The notes below the pieces were generated by a model that ran no database searches, had not been told where the DNA came from, and saw only the letters and a program-made list of their open reading frames with translations. Both the position numbers and the translations under genes were made by a program. From NCBI GenBank assembly GCA_963729195.1, contig CAVSNF010000025.1:192287-256286 (forward strand): a stretch of DNA of 64,000 bases, read 5' to 3'. Shown here one piece after another: positions 355 through 64,000 of the stretch; within the stretch, counting starts at the first letter, position 1, and the number at the start of each line of letters is the position of its first letter. This stretch comes from an uncultured Actinomycetes bacterium. GTDB lineage: Bacteria; Actinomycetota; Thermoleophilia; Gaiellales; JAICJC01.

Positions 355-1125
355 GGTTGAAGCCTAGTCTCGTCTTCTTGGTCGATGACCGCGGCGAACG
401 CGATGGCACACGCCACGAACAGGATCGCGGCCTGCTCGACTGCCATCGTGATCGCCCCCACCTCCTGGTCACGCAGCGCCGAGAATCCCCACAGCTTGGG
501 TGTGTCCAGGTAGAAGTCGTACACCGGCGATTGGGCCAGCGCGAGCACCAGTGACAGTGGGGATGCGGCGAAGAACGCGATCACGAGGTATCCCAGCCGG
601 GCCGGCGGCCGCATCCGCCCGGGAGACAGCACCGCCCACCAGAACACCAGCCCGGCGAGCACGAAGATCACGTGCTCGACGCCCAGCGCCCAGTGGTGTC
701 GCAGCGCGTAGTCGTAGTACGCCGGGACATGCAGGCCGTACCAGGCGGCCAGCCAGAAGACCAGCGCGAACACCGGGTTGGTGGCGGCCCGCACCAGGGT
801 GTGACGCTCGGCCATCGCGAACATCGCCGGGAGTCAGTCCCAGCACCAGAAGCGGCGGCGCCCAGTCGGCAATGATCACGTTTTGGAGCAGGTGAAAGCT
901 GACCATCGACGTCAGCGCCAGATGCTCGATCGGGGAGAGCAGCGCAACAGCGATCAGTCCCAGTCCGGCGGCGAAGGCGGCGATCCGATACCACGGCGTG
1001 GGCTCGCCCGCGGCGGCCCAAGCGCGCGCACCACCAGCACGTAGTCGACGCGCCACGATCGCGATCGCGAGCATCCACTCCCAGTCGAACACGAACTCCC
1101 ACGGGTGAATAACGGTGCCTGGCAC
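351..1125 (-). CDS. Cytochrome c oxidase assembly factor CtaG-like membrane protein (caa3_CtaG family), frame broken once
   Basis: The N-terminal part is in ORF 469..1125 (...SPIEHLALTSMVSFHLLQNVIIADWAPPLLVLGLTP). The C-terminal part is in ORF 351..824 (MFAMAERHTLV...HHWALGVEHVIFVLAGLVFWWAVLSP). Frames join at the GGG run 829..831 (one extra base). The first ATG (1125) lies inside the palindromic repeat, so the start is uncertain. Confidence 0.6.
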
Positions 1126-1137
1126 CGTTATTCACCC
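1103..1137. repeat. Palindromic repeat, copy 1 (perfect 17+1+17)
   Basis: GGGTGAATAACGGTGCC-T-GGCACCGTTATTCACCC. The same core recurs at 29448, 40443 and 63353. It contains the clpS stop codon (1132..1134). Confidence 0.95.
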
Positions 1138-1437
1138 CGAGCTCGAGAGGGGGGCGAGCGTGAGGCCGAAGCCTTGCAGTTGCTCGTGGTAGTGCTCGGC
1201 CTGCTCCTTCTGTCCCGACCACACGACCGCGCGACCGGCTGTGTGGATGGTGTTGGCGAGATCCATGCCGCGTTCGAAGGTCACTCCGGGGATCGTGCGG
1301 GCAAGTGCGAAGGCGACGCCGTCGAAGGTGTTGTGGTTGTCGTTCAGCACCACCACCAGCCACGGGCGGTCGCTGCCGCTGCCGGGATCGCCGGAGCGGG
1401 GTCGCTGCTTTCGCTCGGGCGGCGCGACGGTGGACAT
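1132..1437 (-). CDS. clpS: ATP-dependent Clp protease adaptor ClpS
   Basis: Internal ATG of ORF 1132..1812 gives 101 aa: [10 protein letters not shown]...WLVVVLNDNHNTFDGVAFALARTIPGVTFERGMDLANTIHTAGRAVVWSGQKEQAEHY. ATGA overlap with the upstream gene. Confidence 0.85.
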   Translation of the reverse strand: MSTVAPPERKQRPRSGDPGSGSDRPWLVVVLNDNHNTFDGVAFALARTIPGVTFERGMDLANTIHTAGRAVVWSGQKEQAEHYHEQLQGFGLTLAPLSSSG

Positions 1438-2804
1438 CAGGTGGTCAGCTCCACCGTCGCAGTCTGCAACAGCCGCTTGGCCTCGCGCACCCCGGTGCTC
1501 ATCGCACCGTCGGCGTAGCCCATGCGCGTGACGGTTGTGCCCTCTCCCGCGAACAGCAGCCGGCCGTGGGCCGGCTCGGCCAGGGTGCGGATGTCGGCCG
1601 AACTCGAGCCCAGCGCGAGGGCGGTGTACGCCCCGCGGGTGTAGGGGTCGGCGCCCCAGGACGAGACCGCGACCACGTCGGGCTCGGGACAGGGCGCCCC
1701 GGTCACCTCCGACATCAACTCGAGCACCCAGGCCGCCGTTTCCTCGGGCGACGACTGGTCGAACCGTTCGATGGCGCTGCGAAAGACGAACGCCACCAGC
1801 GTCGGGCCACAACCGAACGCGTCCATCCCGAAGAGCGCCACCGACGACCCCTCGCGGTCACGTGGGAAGACGCTCACGTGGGTGATTCCCGCGTCTCGCC
1901 AGAACGGGCGCTGAAAGCGAAGCGCGATCTTCTCGAAGCGGCCAAACCCCAGCCGGTCGATCGACGCCAGCCGCTCTGACTCGAGCGGCGGCGAGAACTC
2001 GACGTCGCGATGTTTGAGCACCCCCAGCGGCAGCGTCACGATCGCGTGTGACCCCTCGTACACGCTGCCGTCGGCTGTGGTCACCGAGACTCCTTCGGGC
2101 GCGATCATGACGGCGGTCACCGGCGTGTTCAGCCGCACGTCCACGTCGGATGCCATCGCCGCTGTCACCCAGCCCAGCCCACCGACCGGCATGTCGCCCA
2201 GGTAGTCGCCGTCGTAGTCGATCACCTCGGCGTTCGTAACCGCCGGCTGCTGCTCCAGAAACCCCGTGGTGTCGGCCTCGTTGAAGAACTTCAGGGCCGA
2301 GTACAGACGTCTCGCCTGGCCGGGCTCGAGCCCGGCCTCGTTCAGATACAGCTCGACCGCGTCGGCCAGCGATGCCTGTGGGCCGAGCCGCGCGCTCAGC
2401 TCGGGCTGAGCCGCGGGGAACCCCTCCAGCATGTGTCCGACCACCTCGTCGTACTCGGCGTCGGTCAAGAGCCGCTGTTCGGCCAGGTCGAAGATCGACA
2501 TGTCGTCCAGGAAGTTGCCCGGGCGGCAGGCGACCTCCGCCTGGGAGGCGAAGTCGCGCAGCGGGTTTCCGATCGGCGTGTGGATCCAGGAGCCGCCCAT
2601 GTCGATCGGCGAGCCGCCCACGTCGACTGTGTGCAGCCGCCCGCCGATGCGATCGCGGGCTTCGAGCACGACCGTCTCCACGCCGGCGGCGGTGAGCGCA
2701 TTGGCTGCGGTCAGTCCGGCCATGCCGGCGCCGATCACGATCACCCGCTCGACCGCCCCGGTAGCCGCTGCGGGTACACCCGGGTCGCCGCCGCCGTAGC
2801 TCAT
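1437..2804 (-). CDS. Flavin-containing amine oxidase (polyamine/putrescine oxidase-like)
   Basis: ORF 1437..2816. FAD motif [17 protein letters not shown]...[10 protein letters not shown]. Preferred start is ATG 2804 (MSYGGG), which forms an ATGA overlap with the hyuB-like stop. Confidence 0.85.
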
Positions 2805-4292: not shown

Positions 4293-6137
<1,845 letters not shown>

Positions 6138-6179: not shown

Positions 6180-7388
6180 ATGGTTGTGATCTTTGTGGCG
6201 GCCACATTGGCGCCACTGCTGGGTGGCCTGGTGTTCGGTCCCAGGGTGCCGCCGGTGGTGATCGAGATCGTGATCGGCATCCTGATCGGGCCGAAGGTGC
6301 TCGACTTGGCCGACGAGACCACCGTGGTCGCCTTCTTCTCGACCCTGGGCCTCTCGTTTCTGTTCTTCATGGCCGGCATGGAGATCGACTTCGAGCGGAT
6401 TCAGGGATCGCCGGTGACGCTGGCGCTGGTGACGTGGTTTACGTCGATCGCGATCGGCTTATCACTGGGCACGATCCTCCAAGGGGCGGGTGTGGTGCTG
6501 TCGTCGCTGCTGGTCGGGGTGGCGCTGACCACCACGGCGCTGGGGACGTTGATGCCGATCCTGCGTGATAACGACGAGCTGTCGACGCCGTTCGGAGGGC
6601 TGGTGATGGGAGCGGGCGCGGTGGGCGAGTTCGGGCCGATCGTGCTCGTCTCGACACTGCTCTCCTCCGGCAGCCTGGCCTCGTCGGTGGGTGCGATCCT
6701 GACGTTCGCCGCGCTTGCGATGGCGATCGGGGTAACGGCCCTGAAGCTGCACCCGCCCAACGTGATGCGCGTGGTCGGCCGCTCGATGCATACCAGCGCG
6801 CAGCTGCCGATCCGGCTGACGGTGTGCCTGATCGTGGTGCTGGTGTTCCTGACCGCGCACGTCGGCCTGGATGCGGTGCTGGGAGCGTTCGCCGCGGGTG
6901 TGATCGTGTCGCTGGCGACCGGTAAAGACCGGGAGGAGCTCGATCACAAGCTGGATGCGATCGCCTTCGGGGTGTTCATCCCGATCTTCTTCGTGGTCAC
7001 CGGAGTCACGTTCAACCTGACGGCGCTCGGCAGCGCACCGGCGCTGTGGCGGCTGCCGCTGTTCCTGGCCATGTTCTGGGTCGCCCGCGGCCTGCCGGCC
7101 CTCTTCTACTACCGCCAGGCGCTGCCCAAGCTGGCCGATCGGATCGACTTTTCGCTCTTGACCGCGACCCAGCTGCCGCTGGTGGTCGCGATCGCAGAGA
7201 TCGGCCTGGCCACACATCGGATGCGCCCGTATACGGCCTCGGCGCTGATCGGCGCCGGCATGATCAGCGTGCTGCTGTTTCCGATGGTGGCCGAGGGTCG
7301 CCGCCGCAGCCGCCGCGGCGCCGGTTCTAGCGGTCCCGGGGACGCCGCCGCAGCGGTCGCCGCCGACTCACCTGCTTCGACGGCTTAG
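6180..7388 (+). CDS. Cation:proton antiporter (Na+/H+ exchanger, CPA-type)
   Basis: Internal ATG 6180 of ORF 5640..7388. MVVIFVAATLAPLLGG... is polytopic with 10 or more hydrophobic segments. The upstream part of the ORF is antisense to hyuA. Confidence 0.75.
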   Translation: MVVIFVAATLAPLLGGLVFGPRVPPVVIEIVIGILIGPKVLDLADETTVVAFFSTLGLSFLFFMAGMEIDFERIQGSPVTLALVTWFTSIAIGLSLGTILQGAGVVLSSLLVGVALTTTALGTLMPILRDNDELSTPFGGLVMGAGAVGEFGPIVLVSTLLSSGSLASSVGAILTFAALAMAIGVTALKLHPPNVMRVVGRSMHTSAQLPIRLTVCLIVVLVFLTAHVGLDAVLGAFAAGVIVSLATGKDREELDHKLDAIAFGVFIPIFFVVTGVTFNLTALGSAPALWRLPLFLAMFWVARGLPALFYYRQALPKLADRIDFSLLTATQLPLVVAIAEIGLATHRMRPYTASALIGAGMISVLLFPMVAEGRRRSRRGAGSSGPGDAAAAVAADSPASTA

Positions 7389-8658
7389 ACGACGCCGGTC
7401 GCCGCTGCATGGGTACGCGCACCCGCGGCAGGGCGGCCCGCCTGGCCGGCCTGCTGTGGGCAACATTGACCGGCTCCGGCATGTCGCGCATCGTCGGCAG
7501 CAGGATCACGGCGCCGACCAGCGTGATGCCGGCCGCGACCAGGTAGGTGCCCTGGGCGCCGAAGACGGCGATCAGCGGCGCGCCCAGCGCGAAGGATGCC
7601 GCCATCGCGCCCAGGACGACGGCGTCGAGAGCTGCGGATACGCGTGACTGAATGATGTTGGGAGTACGGCGCTGGATGATGTTCTGCGCGGCCACGGTGC
7701 CCAGCGAGTCGAACAGGCCGGCGATCATCATGCCGACCAGCACCGGCCAGAACACCGGCGCCAGGCCGACCACGGCGAATCCGCCCGCGATCGCGACGCT
7801 GCCGACGACGACGGCCGGCTGCTCGAACCGGCGCAGCACGTAGCGGCCCGCCAAGAGCGCGCCGATCACGCCGCCGCCGTCCCAGGCAACGGCGATCAGG
7901 CCGTACCCGAGCGACCCCACATGGAACTGGTTTGCGAGCGTCACCTCGGCCACGATCACGGGGCCGATACCGACCATCACCAGCGCCCAGGCGACCGTCA
8001 GCCGGCGCATGTAGCGGTCAGCCATCAGCTGCCGGTAGCCGTCCAGGCGACCGCCCACCGACTCGTCGCGATTGTGCGACTGCAGCCGCTCGTGCACGCC
8101 GATCATGAGCGCGGATGCGGCCAGCATGATCACGCCCGAGACGACGAACACGCCGGCCGGGCTGATCACGGCCAACAGCATGCCGCCGATACCCGGGCCG
8201 AGCATGAACCCAGCGCTCTTGAAGACGCCCAGAAGGCTATTGGCGCGGCCCAGGTCGTCCTCGGCCACGAGGTTTGGCACAGCACCCTGAACAGCCGCTC
8301 CCAGGGCTCCCTGGGTGGCCGCGGCAGCGACCATCATGGCGATCACCAGATCGACCAGGCCGACGCCGACCAGGCCGGCACAGGCGAAGAACGCGGCACC
8401 GGCGAATCCGGCCGAGATCATGACCACCAGGCGGCGGTCGTGGCGATCGCCCATGTGCCCGGTCCACGGCGAAACCGCCGTCGACACTCCGAAGATCGCG
8501 AGCATCGCGGCCGACACCCACCATGAGGAGTGGGTGGACTCGAACACAACCCAGATCAGTGCCGTGGTGGCCGCTCCGCGGCCGGCCAGCGACAGCCCCT
8601 GGCTGATGGCCAGGCGGCGGACTGCGGGGCTGATTGGGGTGTTCAATGTGGTGGTCAT
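7327..8658 (-). CDS. MFS transporter
   Basis: ORF 7327..8712, preferred ATG 8658 (MTTTLNTP...). About 12 TM segments and a basic C-terminal tail. Its 3' end overlaps the antiporter 3' end by 62 nt. Confidence 0.75.
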   Translation of the reverse strand: MTTTLNTPISPAVRRLAISQGLSLAGRGAATTALIWVVFESTHSSWWVSAAMLAIFGVSTAVSPWTGHMGDRHDRRLVVMISAGFAGAAFFACAGLVGVGLVDLVIAMMVAAAATQGALGAAVQGAVPNLVAEDDLGRANSLLGVFKSAGFMLGPGIGGMLLAVISPAGVFVVSGVIMLAASALMIGVHERLQSHNRDESVGGRLDGYRQLMADRYMRRLTVAWALVMVGIGPVIVAEVTLANQFHVGSLGYGLIAVAWDGGGVIGALLAGRYVLRRFEQPAVVVGSVAIAGGFAVVGLAPVFWPVLVGMMIAGLFDSLGTVAAQNIIQRRTPNIIQSRVSAALDAVVLGAMAASFALGAPLIAVFGAQGTYLVAAGITLVGAVILLPTMRDMPEPVNVAHSRPARRAALPRVRVPMQRRPASSKPSKQVSRRRPLRRRPRDR

Positions 8659-9715: not shown

Positions 9716-10749
9716 GCCGGCTTCCCCGGGATCGCACTCAGCGAGCGGCTCGCGCCCCACGCCCCGATCGCGCTGCGATAAAGCAAACGCAGATACACGA
9801 ACGTCTCGACGTGGGCGATCTCGGGGATCTCGCCGATGCCATGCTCGAGCGCCTGCAGAAGCTCTGCCTGGTCACGGCAGACGAGCTCGGCCATCAGGTC
9901 GTAGCGGCCGGCGGGGATCACCACGTAGTCGATCCCCGGAACCTTTGAGAGCAGCTCCGCCGCATCCTCCAACCGGACTCCCTCGTTGACCTTGATGCCG
10001 AGCCACGCCATCGCCTCGAAGCCCAGCGTGGCGGGATTGCCGACGGCGATCACCTGCAGCGCGTTTTGTTCGAGCAGCCGCGCCACCCGGGTGGAGACGA
10101 CCCGCTCGGACACGCCCAGGTTGCGGGCGATCCGCCGAAACGGCGCCCGGCCGTCGCGCTGCAGCTCGTCGATCAACTCGATGTCGAGCGCATCGAACGA
10201 GCACGCCCCCTCGCTCTGCACTCCCCCGCGGGCGCCGTCCAGCGACCACTGAAACTGCTGGCGGATCAGGTTCAGGTACACGAACGTCTCGGTGCGCTGC
10301 ACGCCCGGGATGGCGCGCACCGTGCGCAGCAGCGTGTACAGCTCAGAGGACGAGCGACAGGCCGCCTCGGCCAGCACGTTGAACCCGCCGGCAGTCTGCA
10401 CCACGTAGTCGAACCCGGCCATGCCGACCAGCGTCTCGGCCACAGCGGCTGCCTGCCCGCCGCGCACGTTCAGCCCGACCAGCGCCATCGAGTCGATCCC
10501 CAGCACCTGTGGATCGGCGATGGCGGTGATCGAGAACACTCCCGACCCGGTTAGCCTGGCCACGCGCTTTCGCACGTGCGCCTCGGACACTCCCAGCTTG
10601 TCGGCAAGCGCCACGAACGGCACCCGCCCGTCCTTCTGCAGCTCCTGAAACAATCGGCGATCGAACGCGCTCAGCGTCGACCGGCCGCGGCCGTCGAGGC
10701 CGCCGACGGGCTCAGGCTGTGAGGAGTTGCGAGGAGAGTTCTTCGCCAT
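9712..10749 (-). CDS. Lrp/AsnC-family protein with two complete HTH+ligand-domain modules in one chain
   Basis: ORF 9712..10758. Two repeats of the AsnC HTH: LFQELQKDGRVPFVALADKLGVSEAHVRKRVARL and LIDELQRDGRAPFRRIARNLGVSERVVSTRVARL. Each is followed by a RAM-like domain. Confidence 0.8.
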   Translation of the reverse strand: MAKNSPRNSSQPEPVGGLDGRGRSTLSAFDRRLFQELQKDGRVPFVALADKLGVSEAHVRKRVARLTGSGVFSITAIADPQVLGIDSMALVGLNVRGGQAAAVAETLVGMAGFDYVVQTAGGFNVLAEAACRSSSELYTLLRTVRAIPGVQRTETFVYLNLIRQQFQWSLDGARGGVQSEGACSFDALDIELIDELQRDGRAPFRRIARNLGVSERVVSTRVARLLEQNALQVIAVGNPATLGFEAMAWLGIKVNEGVRLEDAAELLSKVPGIDYVVIPAGRYDLMAELVCRDQAELLQALEHGIGEIPEIAHVETFVYLRLLYRSAIGAWGASRSLSAIPGKPA

Positions 10750-24184: not shown

Positions 24185-24403
24185 TGCTCCAAAACCCTCC
24201 GAGTATTGTTTTGAGTAGCTGATCGGTGGGAAAAGCTACCTCGAAGATGTCATAAGCGCAAGTTTCAGTAGATCACATTAAACTATTCGCAACAAAGCAG
24301 GTTCAGCGTCATGGCTCTGACTGAACACGCCGCTCGGCGAGCAGCACGGAGTTCGTATGGGGAACGTGTCGCGCTAGCCGCGGTAGGGTTCGTCCATAAC
24401 CGT

Positions 24404-24491
24404 TTGCCGGGGAGTCCCACCGGGGCTGAGAGGGCGCACATGCGCCGACCCGCGAACCTGATCTGGGTAATGCCAGCGAAGGGATGCAGCG
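24404..24491 (+). promoter_or_regulatory. TPP (THI-box) riboswitch
   Basis: GGGGAGTCCCACCGGGGCTGAGAGGGCGCACATGCGCCGACCCGCGAACCTGATCTGGGTAATGCCAGCGAAGGGA matches the conserved CUGAGA...ACCUGAUCUGGnUAAUnCCAGCGnAGGGA core. It ends at the SD/ATG of the downstream gene. Confidence 0.9.
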
Positions 24492-25478
24492 ATGCCACAC
24501 CGTGTTCTCGTCCTCCTCCTCGTGGGACTCGCCGCGCTCGCGGCGGGCTGCGGAGGCTCCTCCAGCAGCTCAACCACAAACAACCTGAACCCGGGCCCTG
24601 CCAACGTCAAGCTGGCGCTCGACTGGTACCCCAACCCCGACCATGTCGGCATCTTTGCGGGCATCGAGCGCGGTGACTTCGCCGGACGCGGCATGCAGCT
24701 GACGCTGGTGGCGCCGTCGGATGTGTCTGACCCGATCAAGCTGGTGGCCGCCAAGCGGGTCGATCTGGGCGTGTCGTACGAGCCGGAGGTGTTCTTCGCC
24801 GCCGAGAAGCACATCCCGGTGGTCGCGGTGGCGGCCCTGGTGCCGACTGCGCTCAACTCGATCATCGCCCGGACCGACCGCGGCATCCACCAGATCACCG
24901 ACCTGCGCGGCAAGACGATCGGCGTGGACGGAAGCGCATCCACCACCGCCTACGTCAAGACGATGCTCCAGACGTCAGGCGTCCCGATCGACTCGGTGCA
25001 CCTGGTGACGGTGGGATTCAACCTGGTGCCGGCGCTGCTCTCGGGCAGGGTCGATGCGATCGCCGGCGGCTTCCAAAACATCGAGGGGATCGACATCCGC
25101 GCGCACGGGGTGGCGACCACCGTGTTTCCCGTCGACCACTACGGCGTGCCCAGCTACGACGAGCTGGTGATCATCGCCAATCGCGACCGGATGCAGTCAG
25201 ACGCCAATTATCGCGACGAGGTGCGGGCATTCGTGACCGGATTGACCACGGCCACCAGCTGGGCGCGAAATCATCCCGCCGCGGCGGTTGCGATCATGCG
25301 CAAACAGAGTTCTCGTGACTACCGCGGCCAGATCGCCAAAAGCGTGCCGGCGACCCTCAAGCTACTGCAGACCTCGCGGCTTGACCCGGCGGCCTGGAGG
25401 GCGTTTGGCACGTGGATGTGGAGCCACGGCCTGCTGGATGTGAAGCCCGACGGAGCGGCGCTCGTAACACAGCCATAA
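24492..25478 (+). CDS. NMT1/THI5-type ABC substrate-binding lipoprotein (ThiY-like, thiamine-precursor binding)
   Basis: ORF 24492..25478. Lipobox LAALAAGCGG. LALDWYPNPDHVGIF is typical of the NMT1/THI5 fold. Sits directly downstream of the TPP riboswitch. Confidence 0.8.
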   Translation: MPHRVLVLLLVGLAALAAGCGGSSSSSTTNNLNPGPANVKLALDWYPNPDHVGIFAGIERGDFAGRGMQLTLVAPSDVSDPIKLVAAKRVDLGVSYEPEVFFAAEKHIPVVAVAALVPTALNSIIARTDRGIHQITDLRGKTIGVDGSASTTAYVKTMLQTSGVPIDSVHLVTVGFNLVPALLSGRVDAIAGGFQNIEGIDIRAHGVATTVFPVDHYGVPSYDELVIIANRDRMQSDANYRDEVRAFVTGLTTATSWARNHPAAAVAIMRKQSSRDYRGQIAKSVPATLKLLQTSRLDPAAWRAFGTWMWSHGLLDVKPDGAALVTQP

Positions 25479-27966: not shown

Positions 27967-28704
27967 TCAGTCCGTCCGCCGCCTCAACGTCACCGCCCCC
28001 AGCGCAAGCGACGCCACCGTGAACACGATCACCGCCGCCACATCCCAGGCAAATCGCGAGCCCAGAGGCGCCGGATTGGTGGTACGGGCGAGGGCGTCGT
28101 AGGCGTAGGTCAGCGGCAGCGCGAACGACACCCAGTAGAGCAACTCAGCCATCTCGTCGCGGGCGATAAAGAGCCCGCACAGAAGCAGCTGGGGAAAGAT
28201 GAACGCCGGCATGAACTGCACCGCTTGAAACTCGGTGCGCGCAAACGCGCTTACGAACAGCCCCAGCGCCATTCCCAGCAGCGCGTTTGCGATCGCGAGC
28301 AGTCCCACCAGCCAGGCTCCGTGGGCGGCGTTCAGGCCCAGCAACAGGAACCCGACCAGGCACACCACGATCGCCTGGATCGCCGCCAACACGCCAAACG
28401 CGAGGCCGTAGCCTGCCAGCAGGTCGAGCTTCCCCATCGGCAGCGTCATCAGCCGCTCGAGCGTGCCGGTGGTGCGCTCCCGCAGCATCGCGATCGACGT
28501 CAGCAAAAACATGATGATGAACGGGAAGAGCCCGCACATGGGCGCGCCGATCGCCTGGAACGTGCTCGGCTGTCCGTCGAACACAAACTTGAGCAGCGTC
28601 AGCAGCGCCACCGGCACCACCAGCAGCATCGCGATCGTGCGAGGGTCGCGGCGGATCTGCCACAGCACCCGCTGGGCGATCGCGAAGGTGATGTGCGGAC
28701 TCAC
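27967..28704 (-). CDS. ABC-2 type transporter permease
   Basis: ORF 27967..28704, 6 TM segments. 4-nt overlap with the ATPase gene. Confidence 0.8.
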   Translation of the reverse strand: MSPHITFAIAQRVLWQIRRDPRTIAMLLVVPVALLTLLKFVFDGQPSTFQAIGAPMCGLFPFIIMFLLTSIAMLRERTTGTLERLMTLPMGKLDLLAGYGLAFGVLAAIQAIVVCLVGFLLLGLNAAHGAWLVGLLAIANALLGMALGLFVSAFARTEFQAVQFMPAFIFPQLLLCGLFIARDEMAELLYWVSFALPLTYAYDALARTTNPAPLGSRFAWDVAAVIVFTVASLALGAVTLRRRTD

Positions 28705-29411
28705 GTCGGAGCCTGCTCGATCACTTTCAGAAACGCCCGGCCCATATCCGCCTCGCCGGTCTCAGCGCGAAGCTCGGCCGGGGTGGTCTGGCGCAGCAGA
28801 GCGCCGTCTCGCATCAAGAGCAGGGTGTGACACTCAGAGGCCTCATCCATCACGTGGCTCGACACCAGCAGCGTGGTGCCTCCCGCCGCCAGCTCGTGAA
28901 ACGTCTGCCACAGCTCGGCACGCAGCACCGGGTCGAGGCCGACGGTGGGCTCGTCCAACACCAGCACCTCGGGTCGGCCGAGCAACGCGGTTGCAAGCGA
29001 CACACGCGAGCGCTGGCCGCCAGAGAGCGCTCCGGCCACGCGCCCCTCGAAGCCGCCCAGGCCAACTGTCTCGATCACGTCGGCGATCCGCGTCCGATCG
29101 ACACCGACCACCGCCGCGAAGAACCGGAGGTTTTCCTCCACGCTGAGATCTCCGTACACCGAAGGCGCCTGGGTGACATAGCCAATCCGCCGGCGAAGGG
29201 CGGGAGATCCTGCAGGCTCACCCAGCACCGTGACCGTGCCCGACGCAACGATCTGGACGCCGACGATCGAGCGCATCAGCGTCGACTTGCCACAGCCGCT
29301 GGGACCGAGCAGGCCGGTGACCGATCCTGCGCTGACATCGAGCGTCACCCCCGTCAGTACCGGGCGCCCGCCACGCTCGACGTGCAGGTCGCTGATGGCG
29401 ATCGCCGTCAC
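28701..29411 (-). CDS. ABC transporter ATP-binding protein (DrrA-like)
   Basis: ORF 28701..29411. Walker A GPSGCGKST, signature LSGGQRSRVSLA, Walker B LVLDEPTVGLD. Confidence 0.9.
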   Translation of the reverse strand: MTAIAISDLHVERGGRPVLTGVTLDVSAGSVTGLLGPSGCGKSTLMRSIVGVQIVASGTVTVLGEPAGSPALRRRIGYVTQAPSVYGDLSVEENLRFFAAVVGVDRTRIADVIETVGLGGFEGRVAGALSGGQRSRVSLATALLGRPEVLVLDEPTVGLDPVLRAELWQTFHELAAGGTTLLVSSHVMDEASECHTLLLMRDGALLRQTTPAELRAETGEADMGRAFLKVIEQAPT

Positions 29412-29447: not shown

Positions 29448-29478
29448 GGTGAATACCGGTGCCTGGCACCGTTATTCA
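29448..29478. repeat. Palindromic repeat, copy 2 (one arm mismatch)
   Basis: GTGAATACCGGTGCC-T-GGCACCGTTATTCAC. Lies in the divergent region between the ABC ATPase (GTG 29411) and the DedA gene. Confidence 0.9.
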
Positions 29479-29503
29479 CACCCCATCCACTACCTTCCCA
29501 GGC

Positions 29504-30133
29504 GTGATCCTGACCCTCCTCTCCCTCACAGACGCCTTCGACTCACTCGCAAACCTCGTCTCCGACTCTCCCTGGACGTATGCGCTGGTGCTCGGCCTGG
29601 CGGCACTCGACGTGCTGTTTCCGGTGGTGCCGAGCGAGACGGCGGTGATCCTCGCGGGGGTGCTGGCCGGTACCGGCCATCTCAGCATCGAACTGGTGCT
29701 GATCTCGGCGGCCGTGGGAGCGTTCATCGGCGACAACTCGGGGTACTGGGTGGGCCGCACCGCCGGCAACAGCCGGATTGGCCAGCGCTTGCTCACCGGC
29801 GATCGCAAGAAACAGATCGACAAGGCCCAGGCTCAGATCGAGGTACGCGGCGGGTACTTCATCATCATCGGCCGGTTCGTGCCCGGTGGCCGTACCGTGG
29901 TGGTGCTGGCCTGCGGTCTGCTCAAGATGCGCTGGGCGCGATTCATGGCATTCGACGCAGTCGCGGCGGTGATCTGGGCGCTGCAAGCAGGACTGGCGGG
30001 CTACTTCGGCGGCCGCGCCTTCGAGGACAACCCGTGGCTGGGGCTGCTGGTCGGCGTTGCCATCGCGACGGTGCTGATCGGCTCGGCGGAGGGCTGGCGG
30101 CGAGTGCGGGCGTGGAGGGCGCGGCGGAGCTGA
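29504..30133 (+). CDS. DedA/SNARE-associated family membrane protein
   Basis: ORF 29459..30133: VPSETAVILAGVLAG...GDNSGYWVGR...GRFVPGGRTVV. GTG 29504 is preferred. The alternative start 29459 lies inside the palindrome. Confidence 0.8.
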   Translation: MILTLLSLTDAFDSLANLVSDSPWTYALVLGLAALDVLFPVVPSETAVILAGVLAGTGHLSIELVLISAAVGAFIGDNSGYWVGRTAGNSRIGQRLLTGDRKKQIDKAQAQIEVRGGYFIIIGRFVPGGRTVVVLACGLLKMRWARFMAFDAVAAVIWALQAGLAGYFGGRAFEDNPWLGLLVGVAIATVLIGSAEGWRRVRAWRARRS

Positions 30134-30943: not shown

Positions 30944-31017
30944 TCGGGGCGCCGAGATTTGAACTCGGGACCTCACCGACCCGAACGGTGCGCGCTACCA
31001 GGCTGCGCCACGCCCCG
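30944..31017 (-). tRNA. tRNA-Pro (anticodon CGG)
   Basis: Hand-folded cloverleaf: CGGGGCG-TG-GCGC-AGCCTGGTA-GCGC-G-CACCG-TTCGGGT-CGGTG-AGGTC-CCGAG-TTCAAAT-CTCGG-CGCCCCG-A. 74 nt, CCA not encoded. Confidence 0.9.
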
Positions 31018-32212: not shown

Positions 32213-32310
32213 ATGATTACTGAAGCGGAGACGGCCTGACATTGGACGATTTCCGCTCACTGATGTCGGGAAGCTGAAGCCCACTGAGCAAGCGCTCGGT
32301 GGGTTTTTTC
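32213..32310 (+). ncRNA. Candidate ~95-nt leader RNA or small RNA ending in a canonical terminator
   Basis: Bounded by the promoter-like boxes and the terminator. Internal stem 32224..32231 / 32250..57. Repeated CTGAAGC and CACTGA motifs. No known RNA family recognised. Confidence 0.35.
32280..32309 (+). terminator. Canonical intrinsic terminator (10-bp stem, tetraloop, T6)
   Basis: CCCACTGAGC-AAGC-GCTCGGTGGG followed by TTTTTT. One G-U pair in the stem. Confidence 0.7.
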
Positions 32311-39204: not shown

Positions 39205-39649
39205 CGGACTGACCATCACCCGCACCTTCGCGGCGCCACGCGAGCTCGTGTGGGCCGCCTGGACGCGACCCGAGCACTTCTCGGTGTGGTTTGGCACCGA
39301 GGCCCTGGCCGTGCCGCTGGAGACGCTCTCGATGGACGTACGCGTCGGCGGGGCATGGCACGCGGTCATGCACCTCCCCGACGGCGGCACGATCGACTGG
39401 CACGGTGAGTACACCGAGGTCGACCCGCCCGCGCGGCTGGCCCTGACGATGAGCGACGTCGCCGCCAGCGACGCCTACGAGCCCGTCACCGTTGACCTGG
39501 TGGAGGTCGACGGCGGTACCGAGATGACGCTCACCCAGACCGGCGGCCACCTCACCAAGGAGCAGTACGCCCAGACGGTGATCGGCTACAACGGCTTCTT
39601 CGACGACATGGAGAAGCTGCTCGCCGCGGAGATCGAGCTGTCCCGATAA
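39197..39649 (+). CDS. SRPBCC/AHSA1-family (activator of Hsp90 ATPase homolog-like) protein
   Basis: ORF 39197..39649: ITRTFAAPRELVWAAWTRPEHFSVWFG... Typical partner of ArsR genes. 8-nt overlap with the ArsR gene. Confidence 0.8.
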   Translation: MTDGLTITRTFAAPRELVWAAWTRPEHFSVWFGTEALAVPLETLSMDVRVGGAWHAVMHLPDGGTIDWHGEYTEVDPPARLALTMSDVAASDAYEPVTVDLVEVDGGTEMTLTQTGGHLTKEQYAQTVIGYNGFFDDMEKLLAAEIELSR

Positions 39650-40430
39650 CTACTCGGCCTCGAGCGACCAGGCCGCGATCTCTGCGATGGCCGACTGGCT
39701 GGTGAGATCGAGGTGCACCGGCGTGACCGAGATCAGGCCGCGCGCGATCGCCTCGAAGTCGGTGCCCTCCTCGTCGTGATAGGAAGGGTCGTCGCCGTAG
39801 ATGCTGTAGCGGCGGCGGCCCTCGGAGTCTGACTCGAGCTCCAATCGGTCGCGGTAGATGCGCCGGCCCAGCCGCCCCACCGCGACGCCCTTGAGCGGCG
39901 GCGGGGGGACGTTCACGTTCAGGATCGTGCGCGGCGGCAGGCCGCGGCTTGCGACCTGCTTCCACCAGGCTTCGCAGAAACCTCGCCGCCGGCTCGAAGT
40001 CGTACAGCTCGCGGCGCTTGAAGTCGACCTTCTGATCGACGCTCTGCTGCGAGATGGCGATCCCCGGGATGCCGAGCACGATGCCCTCGAAGGCGGCCGC
40101 GACGGTGCCCGAATAGGTGACGTCGTCGCCCAGGTTGACGCCGTAGTTGATGCCCGAGACGATCAGGTCGGGCCGCTCGCCGACCAGGCCCAGGTCGGCG
40201 AACCGGACGCAGTCGACCGGCGTGCCGTCGGTGGCATAGCCGATGCTGCCGTCGCGCAGCTCGACCTCGGTGATCGTCAACGAGCGGGTGATCGTGATCG
40301 CCCGGCCGATCGCGCTGCGATTGGAATCGGGCGCGATCACCGCCACCTCGGCGATCTCGTCCAGCGCCAGCTTGGCCTCGTACAGGCCCCGCGACGTGAT
40401 CCCATCATCATTGGTCAGGAGAATCTTCAT
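39650..40430 (-). CDS. surE: 5'/3'-nucleotidase SurE, frame broken once
   Basis: MKILLTNDDGITSRGL...SGINYGVNLGDDVTYSGTVAAA in ORF 39552..40430. C-terminus (LNVNVPPPPLKG...) in ORF 39650..39916. Frames join near 39945. Confidence 0.85.
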
Positions 40431-40442
40431 GCCACGGCTGTC

Positions 40443-40474
40443 GTGAATAAAAGGTGCCTGGCACCTTTATTCAT
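40443..40474. repeat. Palindromic repeat, copy 3 (diverged, with a compensatory change)
   Basis: GTGAATAAAAGGTGCC-T-GGCACCTTTATTCAT. Contains the truA TAA stop (40467..40469). Lies 12 nt upstream of the surE start codon. Confidence 0.85.
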
Positions 40475-41159
40475 ACCCCACGGTGAGGAGGGTGAGGCCG
40501 TGGGGCGGGGCGGTGCGGCCGGCGGCGGAGCGGGGCGCGCCGGCGGCCAGGCGCAGGAACAGGTCGGGGTCGGGCCGCTCCAGCATCGTCCCCATCACCA
40601 CCCGCACCATGTGGCGCAGAAACGAGTCGGCGGTGATGTGGAACTCGAGCCGGTCATCCACCCTGCGCCACTCCGCCTCATACACGGTGCGCTCGAAGTA
40701 GGTGTGCTTGGTCTCGCTGGGCGTAAACGCGCTGAAGTCGTGCTTTCCCACCAGCGCCGCGGCGCACGCCGACAGCACGTCCAGGTCGATCCGGTGGGGA
40801 TGGTGAAGCTCGAACCGGCGGCGCAGCGGATCGGCCACCCGGCCCGGGTTGATGCGATAGACGTAGCTGCGCGAGCGGGCCTGCGCGCGAGCGTCGAAGC
40901 CCGGCGCCTCGGCCACCGCGGTGACCGCCACGTCGGGCGGCAGCCGCGAGCTGATCGCCTGGGCCGGCAACAGCCGCGGCAACGCCACCGAGACGACGTT
41001 TGCGGCAGCGTGCACGCCCTTGTCGGTGCGCCCCGCGACCGACAACTCCGCCGGCTCGACGGCCAGCGCCTCGGCCAGCACGCCGCAGACAGTCCGCAAC
41101 CCCGGCTGCACCGCCCACCCGGAGAACTCGGTGCCGTCGTAGGCGACGGTCAGCCGCAG
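40467..41159 (-). CDS. truA: tRNA pseudouridine(38-40) synthase TruA
   Basis: ORF 40467..41225: RLTVAYDGTEFSGW...GRTDKGVHA. The family N-terminus begins at CTG 41159, just after the rplQ stop. The only canonical start (ATG 41225) would overlap rplQ by 65 nt. Confidence 0.85.
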   Translation of the reverse strand: MRLTVAYDGTEFSGWAVQPGLRTVCGVLAEALAVEPAELSVAGRTDKGVHAAANVVSVALPRLLPAQAISSRLPPDVAVTAVAEAPGFDARAQARSRSYVYRINPGRVADPLRRRFELHHPHRIDLDVLSACAAALVGKHDFSAFTPSETKHTYFERTVYEAEWRRVDDRLEFHITADSFLRHMVRVVMGTMLERPDPDLFLRLAAGAPRSAAGRTAPPHGLTLLTVGYE

Positions 41160-41160
41160 A

Positions 41161-41529
41161 TCAAGGCTGGTGGTCGACGAACTCCAAGTACACCATCGGG
41201 GCGGCGTCGCCCTGACGGGGGCCAAGCTTGACGATGCGGGTGTAGCCGCCGGGCCGCTCCGTGAACCGGGGAGCGACCTGGTGGAACAGGTTGTGAACCG
41301 CGTCCTTGGAACGCAGGAAGGCGACCGCCTGACGCTGGGCCTGCACGTCGGTTGCGTCCTTGCGCGCCAGCGTGATCAGCTTCTCGGCGATCGGCCGCAG
41401 CTCCTTGGCCTTGGCCTCGGTGGTGCGAATCCGGCCATGCTCGAACAAGGCGCCCGCCATGTTCGAGAAGAGCGCCTTGCGGTGCGAGGCGTCGCGGCCC
41501 AGCTTCCGTCCTTTGCGCTGATGCCTCAC
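41161..41529 (-). CDS. rplQ: 50S ribosomal protein L17
   Basis: ORF track: [24 protein letters not shown]... Confidence 0.95.
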
Positions 41530-60939: not shown

Positions 60940-61314
60940 TCAGCCTCCGGCCTTCTTGGCGCCGTACTTGGAGCGCGCCTGGCGACGATCGCCGACGCCG
61001 GAGGTATCCAGCGCCGCTCGAATCACCTTGTACCGCACACCGGGCAGGTCCTTGACGCGGCCGCCACGGATCAGCACCACCGAGTGCTCCTGCAGGTTGT
61101 GGCCGATGCCGGGGATGTACGCCGTCACTTCCATGTTGTTGGTGAGGCGGACGCGGCAGACCTTGCGCAGGGCTGAGTTCGGCTTCTTGGGCGTGATCGT
61201 GTAGACACGCGTGCAGACACCCCGCTTTTGGGGTGCACCGCGCAGGGCGGGCGTCTTGGTCTTTGTGGACGCCTTTACCCGGGGCTTGCGGACGAGCTGA
61301 TTAATCGTGGGCAT
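60940..61314 (-). CDS. rpsL: 30S ribosomal protein S12
   Basis: ORF track: [39 protein letters not shown]... Confidence 0.98.
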
Positions 61315-61380
61315 ACGGTTTTCGAGAACTCTCTGTTAGGACGCAGAAAGACACGGGCCGGGTTCCGGCCGCGACGGGGA

Positions 61381-61408
61381 ACTCTATCACGGCGCAAGAG
61401 CCGTGCAA
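61381..61408 (-). promoter_or_regulatory. Candidate promoter of the str operon
   Basis: Minus strand reads TTGCAC (61408..03), 16 nt, TAGAGT (61386..81), about 60 nt upstream of rpsL. The 11-mer TGATAGAGTTC is shared with the rpmJ upstream region. Confidence 0.3.
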
Positions 61409-61440
61409 GCCACACCGGAAAGGCTCTAGGCTCTGTCGGG

Positions 61441-63358
61441 ATGAGGCCCGCGCTGGTGTCCACAACTGCCCTGCTCACGGCCATATTTGTGGTTGGTGGA
61501 CAGGCTCTCGCGGCTGCCTCGGGGCCGCGGGCGGTGGTGCGGGTAAATCAGGTCGGATATCGCCCCGGGGACGCCAAACGGGCGGTGCTGATGTCCACGG
61601 TGTCCGAGGCCGGCGCCCGGTTTGCGGTGGTGAACGCGGCCGGGAAGACGATCTTGCGGGGTCGGGTCGGGGCGGCGCTGCCGGCCTGGAGCGGCCGCTA
61701 TCGGTTCGCGCGGGCGATCGACTTCAGCGCAGCGCGCGCCGTCGGCGGCGCCCATATCGTGGTCACCGGCCCGGCGGCCGCGGCTTCACCACGGTTTCGG
61801 ATCGGGACGAACGCCCTGCTCTACGCACCGCTGGTGCGAAACGCGGTGCGGTTCTACCAGTCCCAGCGGGACGGGCCGAACGTGATCGGAAGCGTGCTCG
61901 ACCGGCAACCCTCCCACGCTAACGACGCGCACGCGGCGATCACCGGCGCGCCGGTGTACCGGTACGACTCGCTCACCGGCGACCCGCCGCTCTTGGGCGG
62001 GACGCACGACGTCTCCGGCGGGTGGTTCGACGCGGGCGACTACATCAAGCTGGTGCACACGACGAGCTACACCGAGGCGGTGCTGCTGACGGCAGTTCGG
62101 GAGCATCCCCAGAAGCTCTCCCAGCCGAATCGGAATCTGCGAGCCGAGGCCCGCTTCGGGCTGGACTGGCTCAACAAGATGTGGGACGACTCCACTGGCA
62201 CGCTCTACTACCAGGTCGGAATCGGCGATGGCAACGGCTGCGGATCGATCTGCGGCGACCACGACATCTGGCGGCTGCCCCAGGTTGACGATACCTACGC
62301 GGGCAGCGACCCGCGGTTCAAGTACATCCGAAACCGCCCGGCGTTTCGGGCCGGCGCCGCCGGGCAGCTTGTCAGTCCCAACCTGGCGGGGCGGCTGGCC
62401 GCTGACTTTGCGCTCTGCTATCAGGTCTACCGCGACAGTAACCCCAGCTTCGCCGCCGACTGCCTGCGCTCGGCCGAGCACGTGTTCGGCCTGGCGCGCA
62501 CCTCGGGGATCCGCCGGCTGCGCACCGCCTCGCCGTATGACTACTACCCGGAGACGCAGTGGCGCGACGATCTCGAGTACGGGGCGGCGGAGCTGACGCT
62601 CGCGCTGCAGGCTGGGAATCTCCCAAGCGGCCTGGCCCACACCGACCCCATGTACTACCTGCGGCGGGCGAGCCATTGGGCGCAGCGGTACATGGCCTCC
62701 TCCGATCAGGACTCGCTGAACCTGTACGACGTGTCGGGAATCGCCCACGGGGAGCTGGCCGACGCGATTGTCGCCGCCGGGCATCCCGCCGGGTTGGAGA
62801 CGACGCGGGCAGCGCTGATCCGAAACCTGCGGTCAAAGTTGGCTGCGGGTGTCGCGACGTCAGCGTCCGACCCGTTCGGCTTCGGCGTCCAGTACGGCAC
62901 GTGGGACGAGACGCCGCACGCGCTCGGGTACGCGTACGAGGCCGGTGAGTACGACCGGCTCACCCACACCAACACCTACCAGGCCTTCGGCCGCCGTCAG
63001 GTGGATTGGGTGCTGGGCCGAAACGCGTGGGGATCGTCGTTCGTGGTCGGCGCCGGGCGGGTGTTCCCCAAGTGCATGCAGAGCCAGATCGCGAATCTGT
63101 CGGGCTCGCTCAACGGCCATGCCGCCGCTGCAACTGGGAGCGACCGTCGACGGCCCCAACCCCGCCGACGTCTTCACCGACCTGGGGTTACCCGGCGGAG
63201 CGCACAGCTGCCCGGCGGGAGGCGCCAACCGCTTCCGCCCGTTCGACGCCCGCGGCGCCCGCTACATGGACGACGCGCGGGCCTGGCCGAGCGTCGAGCC
63301 GACGCTCGACTACACGGCCCTGGGCGTGCTGCTCTTCGCAGACCGCGCGCTGGGGTGA
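61441..63358 (+). CDS. Glycoside hydrolase family 9 (endoglucanase-like) with an N-terminal Ig-like domain and signal peptide, frame broken once
   Basis: ATG 61441 of ORF 61228..63723: VRVNQVGY..., HDVSGGWFDAGDYIK, ...WRDDLEYGAAEL. The C-terminus (LQLGATVDGPNPADVF...DYTALGVLLFA) is in ORF 62849..63358. Frames join near 63127. The stop TGA lies inside the palindrome. Confidence 0.8.
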
Positions 63359-63385
63359 ATAACGGTGCCAGGCACCGTTATTCAC
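63353..63385. repeat. Palindromic repeat, copy 4 (perfect 16+1+16, opposite orientation)
   Basis: GGTGAATAACGGTGCC-A-GGCACCGTTATTCACC. Lies between convergent genes and holds the stop codons of both (TGA 63356..58, TAA 63378..80 on the minus strand). Confidence 0.95.
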
Positions 63386-63922
63386 CGCCTACGCCGGTAG
63401 GCCCGATGACCGCCATGGCCATAATCGCCGGGACAACACCCCATTCGGCTGAGAATGATCCCCACCCTGTGGCGGCGCTCAACGCCGTCACCACCACCAC
63501 TCCGGTGACGCCGCAAGCGGCGCCGATGGCCAAGGCCTCGAGGAGTGTCCGTGGATGCCCCACCAGTCTGCCCATTGGCAATCTAGCTACCCGGCGTGAC
63601 CGGTGGTCGAGTTTCGGAGGGCGTAGCGGATGGACATGCTGGCGCACGTGCCTTGCAGGCCGCCGACCAGCACAACCAGGGCGGCCATGCGCAGATCGAA
63701 TCCGACGTCCAGTGGGTGGGTAGCTGTACGAGCAGTGATCGCTCCCATACACACGAGCAGCAACCCCACCGAGAACACGCAGCGCAGTACGTCGCGGACC
63801 CTCATCCCACTCAGGGCTGACCAGGACGCACCGGACACCGAAGTCCGCCGTGAGGTTGTGCCAACTGCCTGGAGGTTCTGCCTGCCTCCCAAAGGAATCT
63901 CGAACACGTTCATCTCCTTCAT
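63378..63922 (-). CDS. Hypothetical polytopic membrane protein, frame broken once; start uncertain
   Basis: N-terminus in ORF 63587..63922. C-terminus in ORF 63378..63752 (...LLEALAIGAACGVTGVVVVTALSAATGW...AIMAMAVIGPTGVGGE). Frames join near 63588. No family recognised. Confidence 0.4.
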
Positions 63923-64000
63923 CGTCTCTTAGTACCGGATCTCCGTGAAGCTACAGCCCGTCGGCGTGACAGCGCCTCAGGTCGGTCGTCACCAGGAAGG

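Follow-up and report, generated by a model that had tools for sequence, protein, structure and literature searches.

A 64-kb window of DNA from an uncultured Actinomycetes bacterium of the Gaiellales (64,000 nucleotides (nt) of contig CAVSNF010000025.1; "the window" refers to this whole stretch) holds four copies of a short, nearly perfect palindrome between genes or at their ends. The question raised by this locus is what such an element is and how it came to be there. The initial annotation had offered three readings: a terminator or stabilising hairpin at the 3' end of transcripts, a repetitive extragenic palindrome (REP) mobilised by a REP-associated tyrosine transposase (RAYT), or a dyad-symmetric protein-binding site. 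We conclude, with a probability of roughly 0.85, that the four palindromes are copies of a REP family specific to Gaiellales-type Actinomycetota, which was spread by a RAYT and, once transcribed, would probably act as a 3'-end hairpin. The proposal of a RAYT-moved repeat is supported by hundreds of copies in Gaiellales genomes and soil metagenomes and by a RAYT gene flanked by the palindromes in 11 related contigs.

The palindrome and its family

All four copies were verified. Three were retrieved by a pattern search (matches at 1104-1136, 29448-29480, and 63354-63386) and the one at 40443-40474 was identified by direct reading, whereas shuffled versions of the window gave no match at all. The copies share the layout G-TGAATA-(linker of 1-3 nt)-GGTGCC-W-GGCACC-(linker')-TATTCA-C. 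The heptamer GTGAATA occurs 10 times in the window against 1.06 expected occurrences, seven of them inside the elements; further degenerate copies of the palindrome were not found within the window. The copies, and three of the genes that take their stop codons from them, are as follows.

1103..1137, minus strand: REP copy 1, subtype A, linker C/G, perfect 17-nt arms, centre T on the plus strand
29448..29480, minus strand: REP copy 2, linker CC/G with a single internal C/T mismatch, outermost pair lost
40443..40474, minus strand: REP copy 3, subtype B, linker AA/TT, C:G to A:T paired change, 1-nt bulge (AAAA versus TTT)
63354..63386, plus strand: REP copy 4, subtype A, perfect 16-nt arms, centre A
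1132..1440, minus strand: clpS, stop codon from copy 1 (PF02617, 2.4e-13)
40467..41225, minus strand: truA, stop codon from copy 3; the Pfam domain reaches the last residue
62849..63358, plus strand: C-terminal frame of the GH9 gene, stop codon from copy 4; frameshifted in the window, intact in L065

The coordinates annotated for copies 1 and 3 were right, whereas copy 2 ends at 29480 instead of 29478 and copy 4 had been placed off by one. Likewise, copies 1 and 4 are perfect, copy 2 has one mismatch and copy 3 a compensated change, as had been described, but the 1-nt bulge of copy 3 had been missed. Since the orthologue of copy 3 in L064 has the perfect AA/TT form (TTTT there, TTT in the window), copy 3 belongs to the B subtype and has either lost 1 nt or been misread at that point.

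Beyond the window, the search in relatives that the initial annotation had proposed revealed a widespread family. Scanning of a genome collection with one genome per species yielded at least 101 blocks of 8 kb with the palindrome, and scanning of JGI metagenomes at least 120 soil contigs (71% GC). Among the matches listed, nearly all genome blocks belong to metagenome-assembled genomes (MAGs) labelled uncultured Actinomycetes, Thermoleophilia, or Gaiellales, and the homologues of TruA and of the RAYT carry Gaiellales names. Two palindrome-carrying MAGs have contigs that match the window at 93-95% identity. DNA that had not been chosen for the motif (the window and L103-L106, 147 kb) contains eight copies, or ~54 per Mb, and a single MAG holds at least 32 in its sampled blocks. 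Rfam gave no match at the elements, either at the gathering threshold or up to an E-value of 5, the 37-mer was unmatched in plasmid and phage collections, and no relevant paper on the palindrome sequence or on Gaiellales palindromes was found in the literature searched.

As a near-perfect palindrome of 29-33 bp present in many copies, the element has the size and copy number of a REP. Five subtypes are distinguished by their linkers.

Subtype A: linker pair C/G, 29 nt
Subtype B: linker pair AA/TT, 31 nt
Subtype C: linker pair AT/AT, 31 nt
Subtype D: linker pair TT/AA, 31 nt
Subtype E: linker pair CC/GG, 31 nt

Counted from the centre, Watson-Crick pairing amounts to 79-100% at positions 1-15 and 50% at position 16, and falls to the background of 28% by position 20. 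The two linker positions each occur as three pair types (CG, TA, AT) with compensated changes, and contexts of 71 nt have predicted folding energies of -22 to -44 kcal/mol. The only constant orientation mark is the unpaired centre base (A or T). It marks a real orientation, because internal mismatches in the centre-A orientation are skewed (27 C/A versus 6 A/C) and the centre bases on the two sides of the RAYT gene are opposite. A GGGG run, described previously as lying upstream of the centre-A strand, is no feature of the family: the flanks of 220 oriented copies are mirror images. Singlets, each of them a full palindrome, make up most of the copies and account for all four in the window. Doublets were observed in nine loci; in these, an A subtype is followed after ~15-17 nt by a D or C subtype, at a pitch of ~45-49 bp. 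Open reading frames (ORFs) between closely spaced copies were ordinary genes only.

Gene ends, stop codons, and turnover

Each arm, read inwards, gives TGA and TAA in two of the three frames. Copy 1 separates two minus-strand genes, clpS and a Caa3_CtaG-like gene; the stop codon of clpS (TGA, 1132-1134) is inside the arm of this copy, and a Shine-Dalgarno-like GGGAG motif and the GTG start of the next gene come within ~20 nt of the element. An orthologous copy is present in L101. Copy 3 separates truA from surE, with the TAA of truA (40467-40469) in its arm and the ATG of surE 12 nt beyond. Copy 4 lies between the convergent GH9 gene and a membrane-protein-like ORF on the minus strand (63378-63752), both of which stop inside it (TGA at 63356-63358 and TAA at 63378-63380, respectively). 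The earlier claim that clpS, truA, the GH9 gene, and this ORF stop on the TGA or TAA of the element was therefore correct, and the identities given to the flanking genes were borne out by Pfam (ClpS, Caa3_CtaG, ABC ATPase, DedA/VTT, TruA, SurE, and GH9). Copy 2 is located in a divergent spacer of 92 nt between the ABC ATPase gene (28701-29411, minus strand) and the DedA/VTT gene (~29504-30133, plus strand), a head/head context that is rare for the family.

Three genes in the window are broken into two frames each, namely the Caa3_CtaG-like gene (351-1125), surE (39552-40430), and the GH9 gene (61228-63358). In loci that are 93-95% identical to the window, surE (L064) and the GH9 gene (L065) are intact. 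The split genes are probably long-read indel errors or recent pseudogenes, and the 1-nt bulge of copy 3 may be a read error of the same kind.

The association with gene ends holds for the family. Coding strand and frame beside the elements were called from the periodicity of GC content at third codon positions, and the counts combine genome blocks and soil contigs, among the matches listed.

Adjacent gene ends: 130 in genome blocks, 144 in soil contigs, 274 in total
Stop on the TGA of the element: 41 in genome blocks, 42 in soil contigs, 83 in total
Stop where the arm has its TAA (TAG in a few variant copies): 26 in genome blocks, 47 in soil contigs, 73 in total
Stop 3-114 nt upstream of the element: 58 in genome blocks, 51 in soil contigs, 109 in total
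Read-through: 5 in genome blocks, 4 in soil contigs, 9 in total

Thus, a stop codon within the element is used by 156/274 adjacent genes (57%), and 265/274 gene ends have their stop inside or just upstream of it; the family is extragenic and mostly located near 3' ends. Junctions in the same set are convergent in 79 cases and divergent in 11 (p = 8e-14). The proteins that end on the element are untruncated, as seen for TruA, whose terminal tyrosine is shared by most Gaiellales TruA proteins. Comparison of L041 with L060 reveals a 7-nt deletion that puts the TGA of the element in frame as the gene stop, and this is one route by which stop overlaps can arise. Less pronounced is the relation between orientation and transcription. 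The centre-A strand was said to be the sense strand of a co-directional flanking gene, which applies to all four copies in the window, but across the family the bias is weak: where a single gene lies upstream, its sense strand carries centre A 65 times versus 41 (p = 0.025).

Orthologous junctions differ in whether they carry an element. The truA-surE junction has none in L103, L104, L105, and L106, the TruA proteins of which are 83, 76, 73, and 67% identical, respectively, and in two of these four empty relatives the genes overlap by an ATGA stop/start. Given these four empty sites, copy 3 of the window represents a lineage-specific insertion into a formerly coupled junction. L103 carries a copy at the 3' end of surE, where the window has abutting convergent genes, and L104 one at the 3' end of the DedA gene. 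The ligA/dacB junction is without an element in the window, L103, and L104, while L105 holds an inverted pair and L106 a GC-only hairpin. Subtypes also differ at orthologous sites (copy 4 of the window versus a D-like element with centre T in L065; L027 versus L049), which suggests either that one copy has replaced another or that doublets have lost different members. Direct repeats of k = 2-6 at the element borders were at or below permutation expectation; target-site duplications are absent, which fits movement of the Y1 type.

Several further observations were made at these sites. The inverted pair between ligA and dacB (L105, 15277-15406) consists of asymmetric variants with the same outer arms and a broken core (GTGAATAGAAGGTGTCAGGCAGTTTCTATTCAC), 31 nt apart; it is a REPIN-like doublet, in which both genes stop. 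The hairpin of the more distant relative L106 (16125-16165, GGCCGGTGCCTGGCACCGGCC) has the same core without the AT-rich arms, and another contig of its assembly (ERZ25039551) has a RAYT gene with a normal palindrome upstream (L235). The similarity between window positions 63395-64000 and L065 positions 6200-8000 ends ~10 nt past copy 4 and is followed by an indel of ~220 bp and unrelated sequence; in L065 the variable stretch runs up to three further palindromes that are clustered at 7566-7723.

The RAYT gene and the competing explanations

A hunt for RAYT genes of the IS200/IS605 type, suggested along with the motif search, was successful in 11 related Gaiellales contigs (L146 and L227-L236). 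These loci, the RAYT proteins of which show 50-98% identity, include a Gaiellales MAG and three long MAG contigs; of the two samples scanned for the palindrome, only the soil metagenomes yielded the gene. In L146, the ORF at 309-941 encodes a protein of 210 amino acids with the motifs MPNHYHLL and YIALNPVRAGL. It matched Pfam Y1_Tnp (4.9e-10) and the NCBIfam equivalog NF047646, "REP-associated tyrosine transposase" (95.7 bits, cut-off 80). Its sole match in the PDB was 4ER8 (E. coli TnpA-REP), to which the HUH (HYH) and YxxxNPV motifs align; the similarity to E. coli RayT is weak (23 bits), as is a C-terminal helix-turn-helix match. One palindrome is located 36 nt upstream of its ATG and a second one overlaps the stop codon (CGT GAA TAA).

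This arrangement recurs. A palindrome lies 36-60 nt upstream of the RAYT ATG in 11/11 loci, and a downstream palindrome overlaps the stop codon in 6/6 full-length genes, the upstream copy having centre A and the downstream copy centre T. The flanking pair of L236 is an asymmetric variant, one copy being the exact reverse complement of the other. REP/RAYT systems are defined by oppositely oriented REPs on the two sides of their RAYT gene (PMC3116915, PMC5581495, PMC3479197), and this arrangement is found here in related Gaiellales contigs around a Y1 HUH enzyme of the RAYT type. The neighbours are the same in 11/11 loci, with an M20 peptidase gene on one side and metH or DUF4389-atpC-atpD on the other; the fixed locus across related genomes may reflect vertical inheritance. 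As judged from sequence, palindrome and transposase form a REP/RAYT system.

The full-length RAYTs comprise 210-242 amino acids and end in a helix-turn-helix. Shorter genes (148-197 amino acids) lack this part, and downstream of them two tandem cores are found, not a full palindrome. These tandem cores (GGTGCCTGGCACC, 7 nt, GGTGCCAGGCACC) are devoid of the TGAATA arms and occur once elsewhere.

L231, 4458-4490: tandem cores
L232-L234, ~4543-4575: tandem cores
L235, 5534-5566: tandem cores
L100, 1384-1416: tandem cores

The core of the palindrome seems to behave as a module of its own. Many more distant RAYT homologues from a protein search carry HTH_23 or Sigma70_r4 together with Y1_Tnp.

Based on the association with the RAYT, the family would have been spread by this HUH/Y1 enzyme of the IS200/IS605 superfamily. 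By analogy with the known biochemistry of Y1 enzymes, the RAYT would bind the palindrome hairpin in single-stranded DNA, move or copy the repeat, and cut and rejoin without target duplication. Copies persist where they do little harm, between genes and above all at gene 3' ends; with stop codons in its arms, a copy can adjoin the final codons of the gene on each flank or take their place, and small deletions then join gene ends to the element. Once transcribed, it would fold into a hairpin of 14-17 bp with a GC-rich top and an A/U-rich base. As for the REPs of E. coli, this hairpin would probably serve as a two-way 3' end, blocking 3' exonucleases and/or partly terminating transcription. A role as terminator or 3' hairpin, which had been listed as a separate reading, is compatible with a REP and plausible.

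Several results weigh against the reading as a RAYT-spread REP with a role at transcript ends. No RAYT was found, by regular expression or phmmer, in the window or in ~950 kb of element-containing genome blocks of the closest relatives. The phmmer queries were E. coli RayT and the TnpA proteins of IS200 and IS608, the latter two as approximate sequences, and the M20/metH/DUF4389/atpC locus is outside the window and the first 106 loci, so that this negative does not cover it. The link between the RAYT and the window's own genome therefore rests on the identity of the palindrome family, and the palindromes beside RAYT genes mostly have the CC/GG linker, the window copies C/G and AA/TT; hybrids adjoin the RAYT in L146 and L235. 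Copies 1, 3, and 4 also occur in the 93-95% identical relatives (the orthologue of copy 2 is outside the sample), and very recent movement is therefore unsupported. The GTAG/CGTC head, a hallmark of most described REPs, is absent from 118 and 220 copies oriented by the centre base. At the RNA level, mismatches of the G.U type are not enriched on the sense strand, so a role there is unsupported by covariation. Finally, a terminator scan of the window left the elements unflagged because the full stem runs into CACC and has no T-rich tail; with the GC core alone as stem the tail reads UUAUUCA (A subtype) or UUUUAUUCA (B subtype).

The most durable alternative is that the elements are bidirectional intrinsic terminators evolved by the host, immobile and alike through selection or gene conversion, with an incidental RAYT association. 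The location at gene 3' ends and the strong enrichment at convergent junctions agree with it, as do the stable hairpins and the GC-rich core followed by TTATTCA or TTTTATTCA on both strands; moreover, the window is otherwise no richer in canonical terminators than chance predicts, with terminator-like sites as frequent as in shuffled sequence. On the other hand, an identical sequence of 29-33 bp at hundreds of unrelated sites, in discrete subfamilies, speaks for copying from master copies, and the same palindrome adjoins the RAYT in all 11 loci. Two window copies are followed at 12-20 nt by a further gene of what seems to be an operon, a position that speaks against strong termination at these sites, and truA and surE are translationally coupled by the ATGA overlap in relatives. 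Some copies are in divergent promoter regions (for example copy 2; 11 divergent cases in all among the matches listed), and the tail is not U-rich beyond the full stem. We therefore consider this explanation unlikely. As a separate observation, a textbook intrinsic terminator is present at 32276-32307 (plus strand), with a 14-bp stem followed by TTTTTTCGTT.

Even less probable is an operator for a dimeric regulator or nucleoid protein that binds double-stranded DNA, the form in which the dyad binding-site proposal would apply. Perfect dyad symmetry, the conservation of both the outer box (TGAATA) and the core (GGTGCCWGGCACC), and the C-terminal helix-turn-helix of the full-length RAYT would suit such an operator. 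However, this reading is rejected: the linker of 1-3 nt on each side makes the distance of the outer boxes differ by 2-4 bp among subfamilies, the copies are as numerous as ~54 per Mb and prefer gene ends over promoters (11 head/head versus 79 tail/tail), and their presence differs between close relatives at housekeeping junctions. A DDE-mobilised miniature inverted-repeat transposable element (MITE), composed of two terminal inverted repeats in direct contact, is just as improbable: it would account for a short, dispersed, palindromic non-coding repeat with presence/absence polymorphism, but it is rejected because target-site duplications of 2-6 bp are missing at any offset, and instead of a DDE transposase, none of which was seen beside the copies, a Y1/RAYT gene is bracketed.

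Other candidates were dropped. The resemblance to a sigma-54 promoter (TGGCAC-N5-TTCA) lacks the GC at -12 and has variable spacing; Actinobacteria, moreover, are not known to have RpoN. SECIS elements, dif/Xer sites, and integron attC sites fitted neither in sequence nor in context. Elsewhere in the window, the only Rfam matches above threshold were a TPP riboswitch at 24398-24502 (plus strand, 66 bits) and a tRNA gene at 30944-31017 (minus strand), and a sub-threshold match to a CRISPR direct-repeat model at 10671-10707 (plus strand, 23.7 bits, E = 1.4) is most likely due to chance.

Relation to known REP systems and significance

The palindrome family and its RAYT resemble the REP/BIME-RayT system of E. 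coli (4ER8, PMC3479197) and the REPIN-RAYT systems of Pseudomonas (Bertels and Rainey, PMC3116915, PMC5581495) in most respects: many copies of extragenic hairpin repeats of 20-40 bp, several subfamilies per genome, clusters or doublets, location at gene ends, no target duplication, an HUH and Tyr Y1 transposase bracketed by repeats in opposite orientation, and a fixed chromosomal locus of this transposase across related genomes. In contrast to these systems, the present one has an uncultured order of actinobacteria as its host, its palindrome is close to perfect (in most copies only the centre base is asymmetric) and has no GTAG head, and the RAYT, at 210-242 amino acids, has a C-terminal helix-turn-helix added relative to E. 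coli RayT. With the IS200/IS605 elements it shares the Y1_Tnp superfamily, the recognition of hairpins in single-stranded DNA, and the lack of target duplication; however, the mobile unit is a bare hairpin and not a gene, the transposase resides at one syntenic locus, and no TnpB partner was seen. The symmetric order of an A-rich part, a GC-rich stem, and a T-rich part, along with the enrichment at convergent ends, is that of bidirectional intrinsic terminators. Such terminators evolve individually, whereas a single Gaiellales sequence recurs as copies at hundreds of sites and is linked to a transposase; its U-tract is weak (UUAUUCA in the main subtype).

The supply of stop codons by a repeat is not new in kind: according to Di Nocera et al. 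(2013), flanking ORFs often take their stop codon (TAG) from the terminus of a REP (PMC3733652). Like the GTAG/CGTC-tagged superfamilies, the Gaiellales family consists of short stem-loop repeats that supply stops, here TGA and TAA, and since the element is symmetric the stops are in both arms. Its terminal tag is neither GTAG nor CGTC. With G-TGAATA and TATTCA-C as its outermost conserved bases, it falls in the "untagged" category of REP-like families, which the same authors described as an open one (PMC3733652).

Within the literature searched, no paper combining REP, RAYT, and Actinobacteria was found, and a REP/RAYT system is apparently undescribed for Actinomycetota. New are the host lineage, the near-perfect symmetry with stops in both arms, the missing GTAG/CGTC tag, and a longer RAYT with a helix-turn-helix; no new kind of system is shown.

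REP/RAYT systems have been studied almost only in Proteobacteria, where they are a model both of mobile DNA that is long-lived and inherited vertically and of 3' hairpins in post-transcriptional control; the Gaiellales system extends the phenomenon to another phylum. The palindrome family is abundant in soil metagenomes and has no cultured model. It offers an annotation rule for gene ends, a marker for the binning of Gaiellales contigs, and a natural case in which to ask whether REPs are merely tolerated as parasites or have been recruited as terminators. A more far-reaching version, which we put forward tentatively and hold to be the less probable outcome, is that this is the first REP-RAYT characterised in Actinomycetota, old and vertically inherited, in which a symmetric stop-codon cassette is used as a two-way 3' hairpin and the RAYT has gained a helix-turn-helix. 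If so, an old, inherited REP-RAYT would exist in one of the most abundant soil actinobacterial orders, and its hosts would use a symmetric stop-codon/hairpin cassette at a large share of their convergent gene pairs.

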